Made by a program: the position numbers and the translations under genes
Sequence record: MN158214.1
Origin: Escherichia phage BEBK14
Length of the DNA: 50,853 bases
Strand: one strand, 5' to 3'
In this document: one piece after another, positions 1 to 50,853 of the stretch
Numbering within the stretch: the stretch's first letter is position 1
Layout of the letters: every line of letters starts with the position of its first letter
Notes under the pieces: model-generated
What the model was told of the DNA's origin: nothing
Database searches by the model: none
Seen by the model: the letters and a program-made list of their open reading frames with translations, nothing else

Positions 1-41
1 CCCCCCGTGCCTGACGTTGCAGCGTTCAAAAAATCTTTCAT
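1..41 (-). CDS. partial CDS, 5' end only (continues beyond window start)
   Basis: ATG at 39-41 on minus strand with AAGAGG RBS 7 nt upstream (RC of 49-54); frame open to window edge. Confidence 0.3.
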   Translation of the reverse strand, partial: MKDFLNAATSGTG

Positions 42-118
42 TTTTAGATCCTCTTTATTCAAATGTCAATAGTGATGATTGCATTTTAAACATTGTGCTG
101 AAAAAATAAATAAAAAAA

Positions 119-141
119 GGAGGCTTGTAAATTAAGCCTCC
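119..141 (-). terminator. rho-independent terminator candidate
   Basis: hairpin GGAGGCTT/AAGCCTCC with A-run 100..118 on plus (T-run on minus). Confidence 0.5.
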
Positions 142-164
142 TTATAAGTTAATGTTTTATATGG

Positions 165-335
165 TTATTCTGCTGGTGAAAAAGTCAGGTAATAGCCGTG
201 TAATGGTGCGATTATTGCACTGCCTTGCCCGTCGCGGATCTCATACATGCCGCCAGGAATTGCTACAGCCGTGTAAATCAGGCCGACGGTATAAGGCAAT
301 TGCTTAGATGTGTTTCTGGTGCAACGTACTTTCAT
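165..335 (-). CDS. hypothetical small protein (56 aa)
   Basis: minus-strand ORF starting right after stop of 336..1454; followed by hairpin terminator 119..141. Confidence 0.3.
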   Translation of the reverse strand: MKVRCTRNTSKQLPYTVGLIYTAVAIPGGMYEIRDGQGSAIIAPLHGYYLTFSPAE

Positions 336-1454
336 TTATTTCTCTGCCATCTCAGGATAAAACATAAATCTTCCGATTTCGCCGTGTTCTTTGTCGTAAA
401 TGATAACCGCAGCACGGCGACGGGAACGCCAACCGCCTCGCGCGGCGTATGCGTCTTTAGCTGCCATCGTGCTATGTACTTCAACAATGCCGAGCGATGT
501 TTCTGTTACAGTCTGATGATGAAAATGCCCTACGTGCGCATACATCGTTTTTGAGTTGCCGAAGTCCTCCCGCCAGTCTGCCGCGCACATCATTAGCAAT
601 GTTTCCGGCTTGCGGACGGTGTGACCGTGATGATATGCAAGGAAGGTTTTTCCGTACTGCGTATGGTGAACCACTCGCGGCGATACATCAACGTAAACGC
701 GCGGCTCTTTTTCATATGCCGCCGCCATAGCTGCACGTAACCAGATCATGCCGCTTTGGTCATGGTTTCCCTCAATTATCTGGATCTCTACTTCTTTGTG
801 TTTTTTGAGCATCAACTCAATGGCACGACGGACGGCGCGGATTGCCACGTAAACCAATTTTGCGTATCGGCTATCTTGATCCAGGACGTGACCGCTTGCA
901 GGCGTTACTGCTTCCAGGCCGTCACTATGAAGCATGTCACCCCCAATCAGTAGCACAGCTTTCTCGCTGAACGGTGCACAGGCCACAGCATAATCGAAAA
1001 AGTCATTCATTACTTTCTCAGCCGTGGAAGTATCCCAATTCTCGCCGCATTCGTGTTTGTGCGCCATAGCTCCCAGGTGCATATCAAAAACGGGGTAAAG
1101 GGCAAGGCTTTCGCTGTATTCGCTCGCTTCTTCCGGTGTCGGATCTACTCGCGGCAATTCTTCGGTAAAAGCGTCCATAGCTGCACGCATCAACGCTTCC
1201 AGTTGCTCTTTGTCCTTACTGGTCTTTGTCCATTTGACGATCACGTTACCTTCTTTGTCGGTCATGACCGATTCACCGTGAACACCAAAACCAGGAGTTC
1301 CGATGGTTGATATTTTACCCTGTTTTGCCAGTCGTGCCGCTCGGCGCTCGACGCTACGAACGTTAAGGCCGTATTCCTCAGCAATCTGACGATAGCTCTT
1401 ACCCTTTAATCGCTCATGCGTGAATTGCTCGTCCGTTATCTTGCTCTGACTCAT
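336..1454 (-). CDS. HTH domain + calcineurin-like metallophosphoesterase
   Basis: N-terminal HTH-like segment (SYRQIAEEYGLNVRSVERR); metallophosphatase-like motifs GDMLHSDG, GNHD, HHGH in translation. Confidence 0.55.
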   Translation of the reverse strand: MSQSKITDEQFTHERLKGKSYRQIAEEYGLNVRSVERRAARLAKQGKISTIGTPGFGVHGESVMTDKEGNVIVKWTKTSKDKEQLEALMRAAMDAFTEELPRVDPTPEEASEYSESLALYPVFDMHLGAMAHKHECGENWDTSTAEKVMNDFFDYAVACAPFSEKAVLLIGGDMLHSDGLEAVTPASGHVLDQDSRYAKLVYVAIRAVRRAIELMLKKHKEVEIQIIEGNHDQSGMIWLRAAMAAAYEKEPRVYVDVSPRVVHHTQYGKTFLAYHHGHTVRKPETLLMMCAADWREDFGNSKTMYAHVGHFHHQTVTETSLGIVEVHSTMAAKDAYAARGGWRSRRRAAVIIYDKEHGEIGRFMFYPEMAEK

Positions 1455-1554
1455 GATTTTTTCTCCTATTGGTGCATTACGATACTATATATGATAGCGG
1501 TCGCAATGATAACGGGTAACGGTAGAACAAACAAGCGCCACATGATAACCATCC

Positions 1555-1797
1555 TCACTTATAATATTTGCGAGGCTCTCGAATTTTAGCCATTGCCTCT
1601 TTGAAATCAATTTTTGTTGGTATGGCTGGAACTCGCACCATCTTGCGCGGCTTTTCCTTGAGGAAAGTCATTTTGCCGCCTCCGATCACGCTGATGTCTG
1701 CAATATCGAAATATTGCGCGATCTTCTTTATGTCGTCAGCCATCCCCATTTCGTTTATATGTTGCCAGACTGCTTCACGCCCTTGTTCAACTTTCAT
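1555..1797 (-). CDS. hypothetical protein
   Basis: ORF with GGAGG RBS before internal ATG (MKVEQ...). Confidence 0.4.
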   Translation of the reverse strand: MKVEQGREAVWQHINEMGMADDIKKIAQYFDIADISVIGGGKMTFLKEKPRKMVRVPAIPTKIDFKEAMAKIREPRKYYK

Positions 1798-1966
1798 GCT
1801 TATAATATACCTCCGCAAATTCTAATGGGTAGTGACCATATGCAACGCGAAGTAGAATCATTGCAGCGCCCCAATCAAGCTGCATATTGTTTTTCGTTCC
1901 ACCTTTTACCGCCTCGCGTGCTGTTTGTTGCGCCTGGTCAAATGCTTTCTTGCTATATACTACCAT
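1787..1966 (-). CDS. hypothetical protein
   Basis: ORF downstream of extended box element 1981..2042; RBS GAGGAA. Confidence 0.4.
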   Translation of the reverse strand: MVVYSKKAFDQAQQTAREAVKGGTKNNMQLDWGAAMILLRVAYGHYPLEFAEVYYKHES

Positions 1967-2025
1967 TTTCATTTCCTCATGTTCGTTTCGATGAAATAAT
2001 TATGCCCGACAAAATGCCGGGCGTT

Positions 2026-2042
2026 TTAACAAAAAGTGCTGT
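2026..2042 (-). promoter_or_regulatory. 17-bp box copy (extended form)
   Basis: followed on minus strand by hairpin, CATAAT (1999..2004) and TTTCATCGAAACGAA. Confidence 0.5.
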
Positions 2043-2299
2043 TAGTGGATCATTCCGTGCTGAAAATTCCACGAATCGACAAATTCTTGCATGTCATTTC
2101 TGATCTGTTCATGCCATTTTTCAAGCGGGAGTTTTTTTGTCTCCTCAAAGCTCATATCCAATGCGCTTGAAAATTCCCACGGATCGCAATCAATCATCTT
2201 TTTCACGTTAGGGTTTTTATCAAGCGCATCGCAAACCATAGCGCGATAAAGCAACCATTCGCCACACTCATTTAAATAAACGCTTCTTTCTTTTTGCAT
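2042..2299 (-). CDS. hypothetical protein
   Basis: 85-aa ORF, co-oriented and adjacent to neighbouring minus-strand genes. Confidence 0.4.
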   Translation of the reverse strand: MQKERSVYLNECGEWLLYRAMVCDALDKNPNVKKMIDCDPWEFSSALDMSFEETKKLPLEKWHEQIRNDMQEFVDSWNFQHGMIH

Positions 2300-2303
2300 G
2301 ATA

Positions 2304-3005
2304 TTAACTCCGCTTTCTTGCCCGACGCTCTGCCACGGAAGGGCAAATGTCGCTGATTTTAACGTATCGCGTTTTCTGATGCTCGCCTTCTTTCAGTTCA
2401 CGCATGATGAAAATAACGCTTCCTTTGTTGTTGCCCTGTACTGGTTTACCTGTAAGTGCGGAAGTAAACGCCAGGCGTCCGGTGCGTGAATATTCTGTTC
2501 CATCCTCTTTGTAAACTTCTCCAGTGATCCAGATTATTTCCGCCGCGTGCTGTTGCGCTTCATAAAACCATCCTGTTGATGTGTCGCATGGTAAAAGCAT
2601 GTCGATCTGGTTGTTGTGCTCCATCTGCTCAATCGCTTTCTTAACGAATGGCGTGATGTTGCTGTATGGTGGATTAAGCCAGATGTGCTTATTGCTACCC
2701 CACCAACGCTTTAAGCAATTCGTTTCCTTGCTGTAGAATTTTTCGCATACAGCATTATCTTCGCTTGCTGCCGCGTCGATGTCATAATCACCATATTCGC
2801 TTTCCATCCATGCGACAAGCTCTGATGGCGTAGACCATAAATCGCGCACAACGTCCGGCGTATTGCTTCCGTTATATCGGTTGCCAGTCACTTTGAAATA
2901 TTGATTTGACTTAACTGCCTGGTAATGGCCTCCGGTCGCTAGGGCATTACCTACAAACGTTTCTCGTTCGATTTGTTCAAAGCTGATTTCAATTTCTTTC
3001 TTCAC
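2304..3005 (-). CDS. dam: DNA N6-adenine methyltransferase (phage Dam family)
   Basis: NPPY catalytic motif (WLNPPYSN) and overall resemblance to phage Dam-type MTases; apparent GTG start. Confidence 0.7.
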   Translation of the reverse strand: MKKEIEISFEQIERETFVGNALATGGHYQAVKSNQYFKVTGNRYNGSNTPDVVRDLWSTPSELVAWMESEYGDYDIDAAASEDNAVCEKFYSKETNCLKRWWGSNKHIWLNPPYSNITPFVKKAIEQMEHNNQIDMLLPCDTSTGWFYEAQQHAAEIIWITGEVYKEDGTEYSRTGRLAFTSALTGKPVQGNNKGSVIFIMRELKEGEHQKTRYVKISDICPSVAERRARKRS

Positions 3006-49499: not shown

Positions 49500-49512
49500 C
49501 ACTTTTTGTTAA
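49496..49512 (+). promoter_or_regulatory. 17-bp box copy (extended form)
   Basis: contains TAG stop; hairpin 49516..49534, TATATT, GTTTCATCGAAACGAA. Confidence 0.55.
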
Positions 49513-49571
49513 AACGCCCGGCTTATAGTCGGGTATATTTGTTTCATCGAAACGAATATGAGGAAAACAAA

Positions 49572-49790
49572 ATGAGCAACAAATTTTTTACCGTGGCGCT
49601 GATTATCAAACATGAAAACGGCACTACCACTGAGATCCCTACAAAATTCCCAGCCGACTCCTGGACTCACGAGCAAGCTGTCGGATATGTTGAGGAAATG
49701 GCTAAACGCGTAATGGCTGGTCATTATGATATTGAATTTCAGGAAAACCAGAAGCTAACAAATCATTCACACGAATGGCCTGATGCTTAA
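49572..49790 (+). CDS. hypothetical protein
   Basis: GAGGAAA RBS; followed by terminator. Confidence 0.4.
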   Translation: MSNKFFTVALIIKHENGTTTEIPTKFPADSWTHEQAVGYVEEMAKRVMAGHYDIEFQENQKLTNHSHEWPDA

Positions 49791-49795
49791 AAATA

Positions 49796-49821
49796 AAGGA
49801 GGCTTTAAGCCTCCTTTTTCT
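49796..49821. terminator. rho-independent terminator between early operon and lysis cassette
   Basis: AAGGAGGCTTTAAGCCTCCTT + T5; near-identical stem to 119..141. Confidence 0.65.
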
Positions 49822-50191
49822 TTGTCCAGAAGTAGATAGCAAGCATTACGGCGAATGTGGCAAAACATACGATTATCGGGTCGTACCATCTGCCGTTATC
49901 ACCCTGCACAACCTGGATTTTTTCCGCATTGATGGTATTGGCCTGAATGGTTGATGCCTTAACCGTCTTCTTGCTGGATGTATCCACCTTTTCGACCTTC
50001 GATTCTTTAAAGGTGTTTTCCTGCTTGCTGCTGGAGTCTTTTTTTGCGGTAATACCAACGGCCTGCTTCACGTTCTCCGCGCCAGCCTGGGCGCTAATAT
50101 CTGGCTTACTTCCGGTCAGTAGGCCAACTGGACTTATAGCAGAACAGCCGGACAATAAAACCGCCAGTGCAATAGCTGTGATTCGTTTCAT
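49805..50191 (-). CDS. unimolecular spanin (lipoprotein with C-terminal TM helix)
   Basis: lipobox LLSGC at N-terminus plus C-terminal hydrophobic helix; follows endolysin. Confidence 0.6.
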   Translation of the reverse strand: MKRITAIALAVLLSGCSAISPVGLLTGSKPDISAQAGAENVKQAVGITAKKDSSSKQENTFKESKVEKVDTSSKKTVKASTIQANTINAEKIQVVQGDNGRWYDPIIVCFATFAVMLAIYFWTKKKEA

Positions 50192-50679
50192 TACAGATCC
50201 CTCATGCAGTATTTAAACTCAACCGCGCGACGGTTGCGTAAACCTTTAGAGCGTTCTTTCTTTCCGGTTTTAGGATTCGTGAATTTATCCCACCGCCATA
50301 ACTGCTGGCACGCTTCCGGCAATCTGCCCTGATTAATCAGTTTAAGCATTGTCGAATTGCGGAATGCACCCACACCAGCGTTAAAAGTGAAACTATACAT
50401 CGCCGCTCTCATCGTGGCTGGGATTTCAACCTTCACGCGCTTGTCTACTTCATCCTTCGCCACCTTGATATGTTTTGCCAGTAGCGCATCGCATTCGCGC
50501 TTTGTGTAGGTCTTGCCGATAATCACATCTTTTCCGGTGATTCCGGCGCATACCGTCCAGACTCCGGCAATATCTTTATATGGCGTGTATCTGATCCCTT
50601 CGATTTCCTCAAGAAGTGGAGAAGTAAGAGCAAGCGCAGCGCCGATGGCGACGGCGACGACGCTATTTCTTGCGCTCAT
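50191..50679 (-). CDS. endolysin, GH24 lysozyme with SAR-like N-terminus
   Basis: lysozyme-like core; weakly hydrophobic Gly/Ala-rich N-terminal segment. Confidence 0.7.
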
Positions 50680-50853
50680 TATTTACCCCTAATTTCAATT
50701 GCTTTTTTAAAGTCACCACTATCAAGCGCCTTCTGGAAGGCTTTACTATCACGCCACCGCAGATAAGCGCCCCACACGCCGAAAATAGCCATCAATACGA
50801 AGCTGGCAATTGCAATTGCAGTTTGTCCGGTTACTGCTCCCGTGATTGATGCA
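50679..50853 (-). CDS. holin, partial (N-terminus beyond window end)
   Basis: frame open to window edge; hydrophobic segment then charged C-terminus; stop overlaps endolysin ATG (TAATG). Confidence 0.5.

Follow-up and report, generated by a model that had tools for sequence, protein, structure and literature searches.

The right end of the Escherichia phage BEBK14 genome (MN158214.1), analyzed here as one window of 50,853 nucleotides, carries a holin, an endolysin and a spanin gene on the minus strand. We are highly confident that these genes represent the T1-type late lysis cassette of a Drexlerviridae coliphage, organized as one transcription unit of three translationally coupled genes. The gene structure, the orthology to the phage T1 lysis genes, the sequence motifs and the absence of a separate outer membrane spanin (o-spanin) are established for the phage of this window. 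The last gene encodes a unimolecular spanin (u-spanin), the endolysin is predicted to be of the signal-anchor-release (SAR) type, and the holin is probably a pinholin.

Organization of the lysis cassette across the genome ends

The list of open reading frames (ORFs) shows the three genes following each other without gaps at the right end of the window, in the order holin, endolysin and spanin. ORF translation confirms the genes of the original prediction at their stated coordinates, all on the minus strand, namely, the 3' part of the holin gene at 50679..50853 (C-terminal 57 codons and stop), the endolysin gene at 50191..50679 (162 amino acids; a GH24 lysozyme with a SAR-like N terminus), and the spanin gene at 49805..50191 (128 amino acids; lipobox LLSGC plus a transmembrane domain [TMD] at the C terminus). 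Both gene pairs overlap as TAATG stop/start sequences, the holin TAA sharing one base with the endolysin ATG, and each of the three starts is preceded at 7 to 9 nucleotides by a purine-rich Shine-Dalgarno sequence, which for the holin is AAGAGG, ~8 nucleotides upstream of its ATG. Such overlaps and ribosome binding sites are the usual mark of translationally coupled lysis genes.

The holin gene had been described as partial. This is correct for 50679..50853, which holds only the 57 C-terminal codons, but the gene itself is intact. In the related phage BabyEgg (PP925846), the sequence past the counterpart of the window's last base reads CCCCCCGTGCCTGACG..., exactly matching the window from position 1, and the coordinates of Jahat_MG145 (MK552105) likewise run unbroken across the window's end and start. 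Position 50853 joins on circularization to the 5' part of the gene at 1..41 on the minus strand, which supplies the start ATG (41..39) and the first 14 codons, and the joined ORF encodes a 71-amino-acid holin identical to that of BabyEgg. Because end and start are contiguous in both relatives, the window represents a complete, circularly permuted genome of ~50.85 kb that was cut within the holin gene. The arbitrary linearization point is unsurprising, since the T1 GenBank record annotates a 2.8-kb terminal repeat region. Gene callers run on the linear record would truncate or miss the holin at this cut (1 / 50853).

The holin is probably a pinholin

Over its full length (residues 1-71), the holin matches phrog_2877, annotated "holin" (E = 3.4e-34), and it shares 61% identity with T1 gp13 (E = 4e-31). 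A search of NCBIfam gave no holin match. Its composition and homology suggest that it acts as a pinholin, which we consider probable. An uncharged stretch of 42 residues (residues 4-45) is followed by a net-basic tail. The first half of this stretch (residues 7-23) is 88% Gly/Ala/Ser/Thr, with a summed Hessa free energy of insertion (dG) of about +7.0, compared to about +6.5 for TMD1 of DLP12 EssD, a representative of the S21 pinholin family. The second half (residues 25-41) has a dG of -0.9, compared to +0.2 for TMD2 of EssD, and both proteins are 71 amino acids long. An in-frame TTG located 7 codons upstream of the holin start was considered as part of a possible dual-start motif and rejected, as it has no Shine-Dalgarno sequence and the relatives annotate the ATG.

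Several observations weigh against this assignment and speak for a holin of another kind, either a protein with a single TMD (N-out, C-in) or a canonical large-hole holin, with a topology unlike that of S21. SAR endolysins can function with canonical holins, as in phage P1. In the BEBK14 holin, only segment 25-45 reaches a hydrophobicity sufficient for stable insertion (dG of -0.9; residues 7-23 score about +7), the two putative TMDs have no polar loop between them, and BLASTP gave no alignment with EssD at E <= 100. In addition, the T1 GenBank record notes a single TMD for its holin. The missing loop probably explains why that record says one TMD and the TLS paper proposes two (PMC11447400). 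Against a nonpinholin stand the hydropathy layout, length and basic tail, which resemble EssD/S21 in the quantitative terms given above, and the 42-residue uncharged stretch, which could accommodate two helices. Moreover, the survey of the Young laboratory (PMC6139136) and later papers (PMC11447400, PMC13164509) class the T1-family holins as pinholins. We therefore favor the pinholin and regard the other kinds of holin as unlikely, if still a serious alternative.

The endolysin resembles the SAR endolysin of phage 21

The endolysin contains a Phage_lysozyme domain (PF00959, E = 2.2e-37), matches phrog_7 (E = 2.4e-53), and is 66% identical to T1 gp12 (E = 1e-80) and 50% identical to DLP12 RrrD. 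Its closest solved structures are 3HDE (full-length phage 21 R; E = 2.4e-42) and 4ZPU (DLP12 RrrD; E = 2.1e-41). The catalytic triad of the T4-lysozyme type, E27-x8-D36-x5-T42, is invariant in nine sequences, comprising eight T1-family endolysins and phage 21 R (R21).

The original prediction proposed a SAR-type enzyme with a weakly hydrophobic, Gly/Ala-rich N terminus. This is backed by homology to R21 from residue 7 onward, as the alignment with 3HDE begins inside the N-terminal hydrophobic segment. Residues 7-23, preceded by Arg4, are 47% Gly/Ala/Ser/Thr and have a summed dG of +1.15, compared to +0.15 for the SAR segment of R21, +1.7 to +3.1 for the endolysin relatives and -2.3 for the TMD of the spanin. 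From these features, we infer that the N terminus is a SAR domain which leaves the membrane uncleaved. None of eight endolysin family members nor R21 has a cysteine within the first 30 residues, suggesting regulation of the R21 type and not of the disulfide-caged P1 Lyz type. The catalytic Glu27 lies only 4 residues past the hydrophobic segment because the 6-residue linker of R21 (TGPSGN) is missing from the BEBK14 enzyme, and this proximity fits inactivation through a membrane tether. T1 gp12 and its TLS orthologue have been published as SAR endolysins (PMC6139136, PMC11447400), in agreement with a further report (PMC13164509).

Alternatively, the N terminus could be a cleavable Sec signal peptide, yielding a soluble periplasmic enzyme that is restrained by other means. 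Sequence cannot reliably separate SAR domains from signal peptides, and the segment does have an n-region with Arg4 followed by a hydrophobic core of ~12 to 17 residues. The A-L-A at positions 15-17, which resembles an AxA signal peptidase I site, counts against a SAR domain. However, its counterpart in the alignment with the solved R21 (3HDE) is an uncleaved SAR domain, and the marginal hydrophobicity and Gly/Ala/Ser/Thr content (41 to 53%) of the segment are kept in all eight relatives despite varying sequence. Together with the position of Glu27, which is where inactivation by a membrane tether predicts it, and the SAR label that T1 gp12 and its TLS counterpart carry in published annotation, this makes a cleaved signal peptide quite improbable.

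The last gene encodes a u-spanin of the T1 gp11 family

The product of the last gene combines a lipoprotein signal and a TMD, both of which had been proposed from the sequence and are recovered by a PROSITE PS51257-type rule, by hydropathy and by a predicted helix. The rule places the lipobox cysteine at Cys16, with Ser17 at +2, and the N terminus shows the characteristics of an outer membrane lipoprotein (basic n-region, hydrophobic core, lipobox Cys and no Asp at +2). A serine at this position would allow the Lol system to sort the protein to the outer membrane. The C-terminal segment IIVCFATFAVMLAIYFW (residues 106-122) is the most hydrophobic of the protein (Kyte-Doolittle score of 2.41; summed Hessa dG of -2.3). 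It is followed by the basic tail TKKKEA, the protein ending in ...DPIIVCFATFAVMLAIYFWTKKKEA, and this arrangement fits an N-out, C-in orientation. Cysteines occur only at position 16, the lipoylation site, and at position 109 within the TMD, leaving a periplasmic domain of ~89 amino acids without cysteine. This pattern matches a published trait of u-spanins, the lack of periplasmic cysteines (PMC6139136).

Database and pairwise comparisons lead to the same family. The spanin matches phrog_1804 (E = 1.1e-45) and is 47% identical to T1 gp11 over 122 of its 128 amino acids (E = 3e-36), which places it within the gp11 family as defined by Kongari et al. (2018, PMC6139136), that is, at least 40% identity across at least 40% of the length. 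T1 gp11 is the experimentally characterized prototype u-spanin, for which complementation of lambda Rz/Rz1 and mutational tests of the lipobox have been published (PMC6139136). With two exceptions, the gp11-family spanins are encoded in cassettes of the pinholin/SAR-endolysin type (PMC6139136), in agreement with later work (PMC11447400, PMC13164509). By tblastn, gp11-type spanins are found in 1171 phage records.

The two anchors are maintained across the family. An alignment of ten relatives draws on six Drexlerviridae lineages and on one phage of the Autographiviridae. Nine of the ten conform to the lipobox rule ([LIVTA][LSTV][ST]GC); in the spanin of Vibrio Vc1, the aligned cysteine lies in the variant sequence RSIAC, which the rule does not recognize. 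The cysteine and the following serine are invariant columns of the alignment, and the motif scan reports a serine directly after the lipobox cysteine for every scored sequence but KP1801, which has an alanine. The C-terminal hydrophobic segment and basic tail are present in all ten relatives, though the sequence of the segment is not conserved. None of the nine relatives with a scored lipobox has a periplasmic cysteine, and several periplasmic positions are invariant.

The structure prediction captures the anchors of the protein and little of its periplasmic part. A single-sequence AlphaFold2 model has a mean predicted local distance difference test (pLDDT) score of 56.5, and its usable parts are limited to the signal helix and the TM helix (residues 105-127, pLDDT of 73 to 87). 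The periplasmic domain of the gp11 family is reported to contain a short helix followed by at least four beta elements (Kongari et al. 2018, PMC6139136). As a point against the assignment, this beta-rich fold is not reproduced in the low-confidence model, in which the periplasmic part shows a low-confidence helix at residues 32-44 and no strands (pLDDT of 44 to 49). The spanin matched no Pfam model and no relative in the PDB (best E = 0.99). An NCBIfam "spanin2" match to residues 8-89 (23.9 bits against a cutoff of 80; E = 3e-5) was discarded as too weak and uninformative.

One could also suppose that 49805..50191 encodes a lipoprotein that serves a different purpose, for instance superinfection exclusion in the manner of Cor, and that the outer membrane is disrupted otherwise. 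A weak match to phrog_1119 (E = 1.6e-4, residues 1-56) points in this direction, and the Jahat_MG145 record labels the gene merely "lipoprotein." However, the Cor match is confined to the signal and lipobox region, and the full-length spanin match is 41 orders of magnitude stronger. The identity to a protein that complements lambda Rz/Rz1, the retention of the C-terminal TMD throughout the family, and the translational coupling of the gene to the endolysin also speak for a spanin, making a Cor-like function highly improbable.

A scan of the circularized cassette in all frames, from all ATG, GTG and TTG starts, yielded no second lipobox ORF, and an embedded or overlapping equivalent of Rz1 is excluded because the only lipobox ORF is the spanin itself. 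The one-component arrangement proposed initially, as opposed to Rz/Rz1, is thereby upheld. Embedded o-spanin genes often go unannotated (196 of 528 were missing; PMC6139136), but a two-component spanin with its o-spanin hidden in or overlapping the last gene has a negligible probability here, given the outcome of the scan, an only sizeable alternative-frame ORF (49873..50058, 61 amino acids) whose highly basic product lacks both a signal sequence and a Cys lipobox, and a main ORF whose N terminus is a lipoprotein signal and not the TMD of an inner membrane spanin (i-spanin).

Proposed course of lysis

Taken together, these predictions suggest the following sequence of events, which is the pathway already published for pinholins, SAR endolysins and u-spanins. 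The holin, most likely a small-hole pinholin, would accumulate in the inner membrane, trigger at a set time and collapse the proton-motive force. Meanwhile, the endolysin, exported by Sec, would stay inactive at the periplasmic side of the inner membrane, where its uncleaved, weakly hydrophobic SAR segment would hold it. Upon depolarization, this segment would exit the bilayer and the enzyme would refold, as described for phage 21 R, and degrade the peptidoglycan. The u-spanin would be lipoylated at Cys16, reach the outer membrane, in keeping with Ser at +2, and retain its C-terminal helix in the inner membrane. With a lipid anchor in one membrane and a helix in the other, a single polypeptide would thus cross the periplasm and pass through the meshwork of murein. 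When this meshwork has been degraded, the u-spanin would oligomerize or collapse, fuse both membranes and free the progeny.

The holin and SAR steps of this scheme draw on composition and on homology to phage 21 R, and the spanin step draws on the relation to its orthologue T1 gp11, a protein with published complementation (PMC6139136). Membrane fusion by the spanin is a model even for T1. Our literature search turned up no experiment on T1 gp12 or gp13, which counts against the scheme.

Boundaries of the transcription unit

The cassette is bracketed by two hairpins. At 49795..49817, a bidirectional hairpin that resembles an intrinsic terminator on both strands (AAAGGAGGC-TTT/TAA-GCCTCCTTT) has a 10-bp stem with T-runs on either side, and it putatively ends both the lysis transcript and the converging plus-strand gene at 49572..49790. 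The stop codon of the spanin (49805-49807) lies in its loop, and its minus-strand 5' arm encodes the conserved C-terminal K-E-A of the spanin. The same bases are thus constrained by RNA structure and protein sequence. On the other side, a terminator-like hairpin on the minus strand at 117..143, with an 8-bp stem (AAGGAGGC/GCCTCCTT), lies between the gene for a DUF7244 protein and the holin gene and appears to mark the upstream boundary of the lysis transcription unit. The stem pair AAGGAGGC/GCCTCCTT occurs exactly twice in the window, at these two sites, compared to 0 expected by chance.

The same layout is found in T1, with one hairpin between gp14 and gp13 and the same stem, as AAAGGAGGC-GTAA-GCCTCCTTT, covering the stop codon of gp11, a site annotated as a terminator in the GenBank record of T1. 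Because hairpins bracket the cassette in both phages, the three genes are likely to form a discrete unit. As a point against such a unit, scans for sigma-70 promoters gave counts at chance level and no convincing candidate for the cassette. The best match (69..40) overlaps the holin ATG and was rejected for that reason, and a second candidate at 131..103 was set aside, with only 9 of 12 positions matching in the same chance-level scan.

Comparison with the lysis systems of T1, phage 21 and lambda

The closest characterized counterpart is the cassette of T1 (NC_005833, 42878..43982; gp13, gp12 and gp11), which has the same gene order and the same stop/start overlaps. Its products of 71, 162 and 133 amino acids compare to 71, 162 and 128 in BEBK14, and the LSGC lipobox and E-x8-D-x5-T triad are the same. 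The surroundings are syntenic as well, with an exonuclease-like gene and DUF7244 upstream and a converging small gene, a YdbL-like gene and a DUF3987 helicase downstream. However, T1 belongs to the Tunavirinae and the phage of the window to the Tempevirinae, and their nucleotide similarity is below the reach of megablast. Unlike the window, T1 carries HNH endonuclease insertions nearby. The BEBK14 spanin is 5 amino acids shorter than gp11, and its TMD sequence is not conserved.

In the systems of phage 21 and DLP12 (S21/EssD and R21/RrrD; PDB 3HDE, 3HDF and 4ZPU), the endolysin is a true homologue, with 49 to 50% identity that includes the SAR region. The holin, in contrast, shares length and hydropathy layout with the BEBK14 protein and has no sequence similarity to it. 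These phages also use a two-component spanin (rzpD follows rrrD in the DLP12 locus), whereas the window encodes a u-spanin.

Lambda Rz/Rz1 occupies the same last position of the cassette and has the same function, disruption of the outer membrane. It differs in that the BEBK14 spanin has both anchors on one polypeptide, no periplasmic cysteine and no embedded gene. There is no sequence homology between the two, and the periplasmic domain of u-spanins is reported to be beta-rich and not a coiled coil.

Relatives and taxonomic placement

Over 49500-50853, the window is 99.9% identical to BabyEgg and 99.5 to 99.6% identical to MatMar, WaterSpirit and Jahat_MG145. Its first 25 kb share 98 to 99% identity with these four phages over 91 to 96% of the length. 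In the lysis genes, there is full or almost full identity, and the genomes differ only by their linearization point and a few substitutions. The genes are annotated as holin, endolysin and spanin in three of these records and as holin, lysozyme and lipoprotein in that of Jahat_MG145. The PeterMerian record has the same cassette architecture, with the last gene annotated as "u-spanin."

The near-identical relatives that have a taxonomy line are assigned to the Drexlerviridae, Tempevirinae, Warwickvirus. On the basis of full synteny and whole-genome identity, the window is accordingly placed in the Drexlerviridae, Tempevirinae, as Warwickvirus-like. From its sequence relationships, the phage is T1-like at the family level, and its subfamily differs from that of T1. 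The original prediction took the u-spanin as support for a T1-like assignment. The placement stands by synteny and genome-wide identity, but the u-spanin alone is insufficient for it. Klebsiella phage KpV41, a member of the Autographiviridae, encodes a gp11-family u-spanin (about 47% identity over residues 1-117; locus 1201..2441), in the gene order spanin, holin and endolysin seen in Drulisvirus podophages. Because the gp11 family extends to the Autographiviridae, its presence is no marker of a T1-like phage. The u-spanin of Drulisvirus podophages suggests that unrelated phage families have exchanged this gene horizontally.

Cassettes of this type have already been described for T1 (Summer 2007 and Kongari et al. 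2018, PMC6139136), TLS (PMC11447400) and KanT1 (PMC13164509). The BEBK14 cassette is correctly identified but ordinary, and nothing in it is new. The value of the analysis lies mainly in annotation: a complete Drexlerviridae genome is recognized in the window, its lysis module is of the standard type, and the "partial" holin is an artifact of the cut site. One more sequence of a family for which T1 gp11 already serves as the experimental model brings no progress on the question of how two membranes are fused by a beta-rich, single-chain spanin.

Queries with 49867-50852 and 1-25000 also matched 13 to 21 unannotated "Campylobacter phage A1xx" records (MG0656xx), with 80 to 85% nucleotide identity over most of the window genome. 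These records carry the same lysis cassette of the Enterobacteriaceae type, and their host label, Campylobacter jejuni, looks doubtful. It perhaps reflects contamination or a carried-over coliphage.

Neighboring genes

Upstream of the holin, beyond the hairpin at 117..143, the minus-strand gene at 165..335 encodes a 56-amino-acid standalone SH3-like protein of the DUF7244 family (Pfam PF23896, E = 8.5e-28). The protein is an orthologue of T1 gp14 (53% identity), and its family is found in 174 phage records. A 2026 paper proposes the standalone SH3 protein as an auxiliary component of the lysis module (PMC13164509). The gene occurs in the Warwickvirus clade of the window and is absent from the same position in three other Tempevirinae loci (PeterMerian, damhaus and ElisaCorrea). 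By eye, the protein shows no obvious N-terminal hydrophobic export signal or TMD. Together with a start that abuts the stop of the exonuclease-like gene and the hairpin that separates it from the holin gene, this argues against a direct role of DUF7244 in lysis.

The points raised about the holin and DUF7244 can be joined into a different picture of the cassette. The holin would then be a convergent, nonhomologous pinholin with two loop-less helices, or a single-pass protein with an unusual Gly/Ser/Thr-rich periplasmic N terminus, and DUF7244 would be a fourth lysis factor despite its lack of an export signal and its place in the transcription unit upstream. We consider this combination improbable. 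Both of its parts have been raised previously in the literature for T1 relatives, and neither touches the assignment of the u-spanin.

The exonuclease-like gene itself (336..1454, minus strand) is annotated as "DNA repair exonuclease" in relatives. Its product has an N-terminal segment resembling sigma-70 region 4/helix-turn-helix domains (PF08281, E = 7e-5, below the Pfam cutoff) and a faint metallophosphoesterase match (E = 0.12).

At the other end of the cassette, the converging plus-strand gene at 49572..49790 encodes a conserved 72-amino-acid protein that matches phrog_27210 (E = 5.6e-13) and no Pfam family. It shares the terminator of the spanin gene, and each of the Tempevirinae loci compared has an annotated counterpart in the same place.

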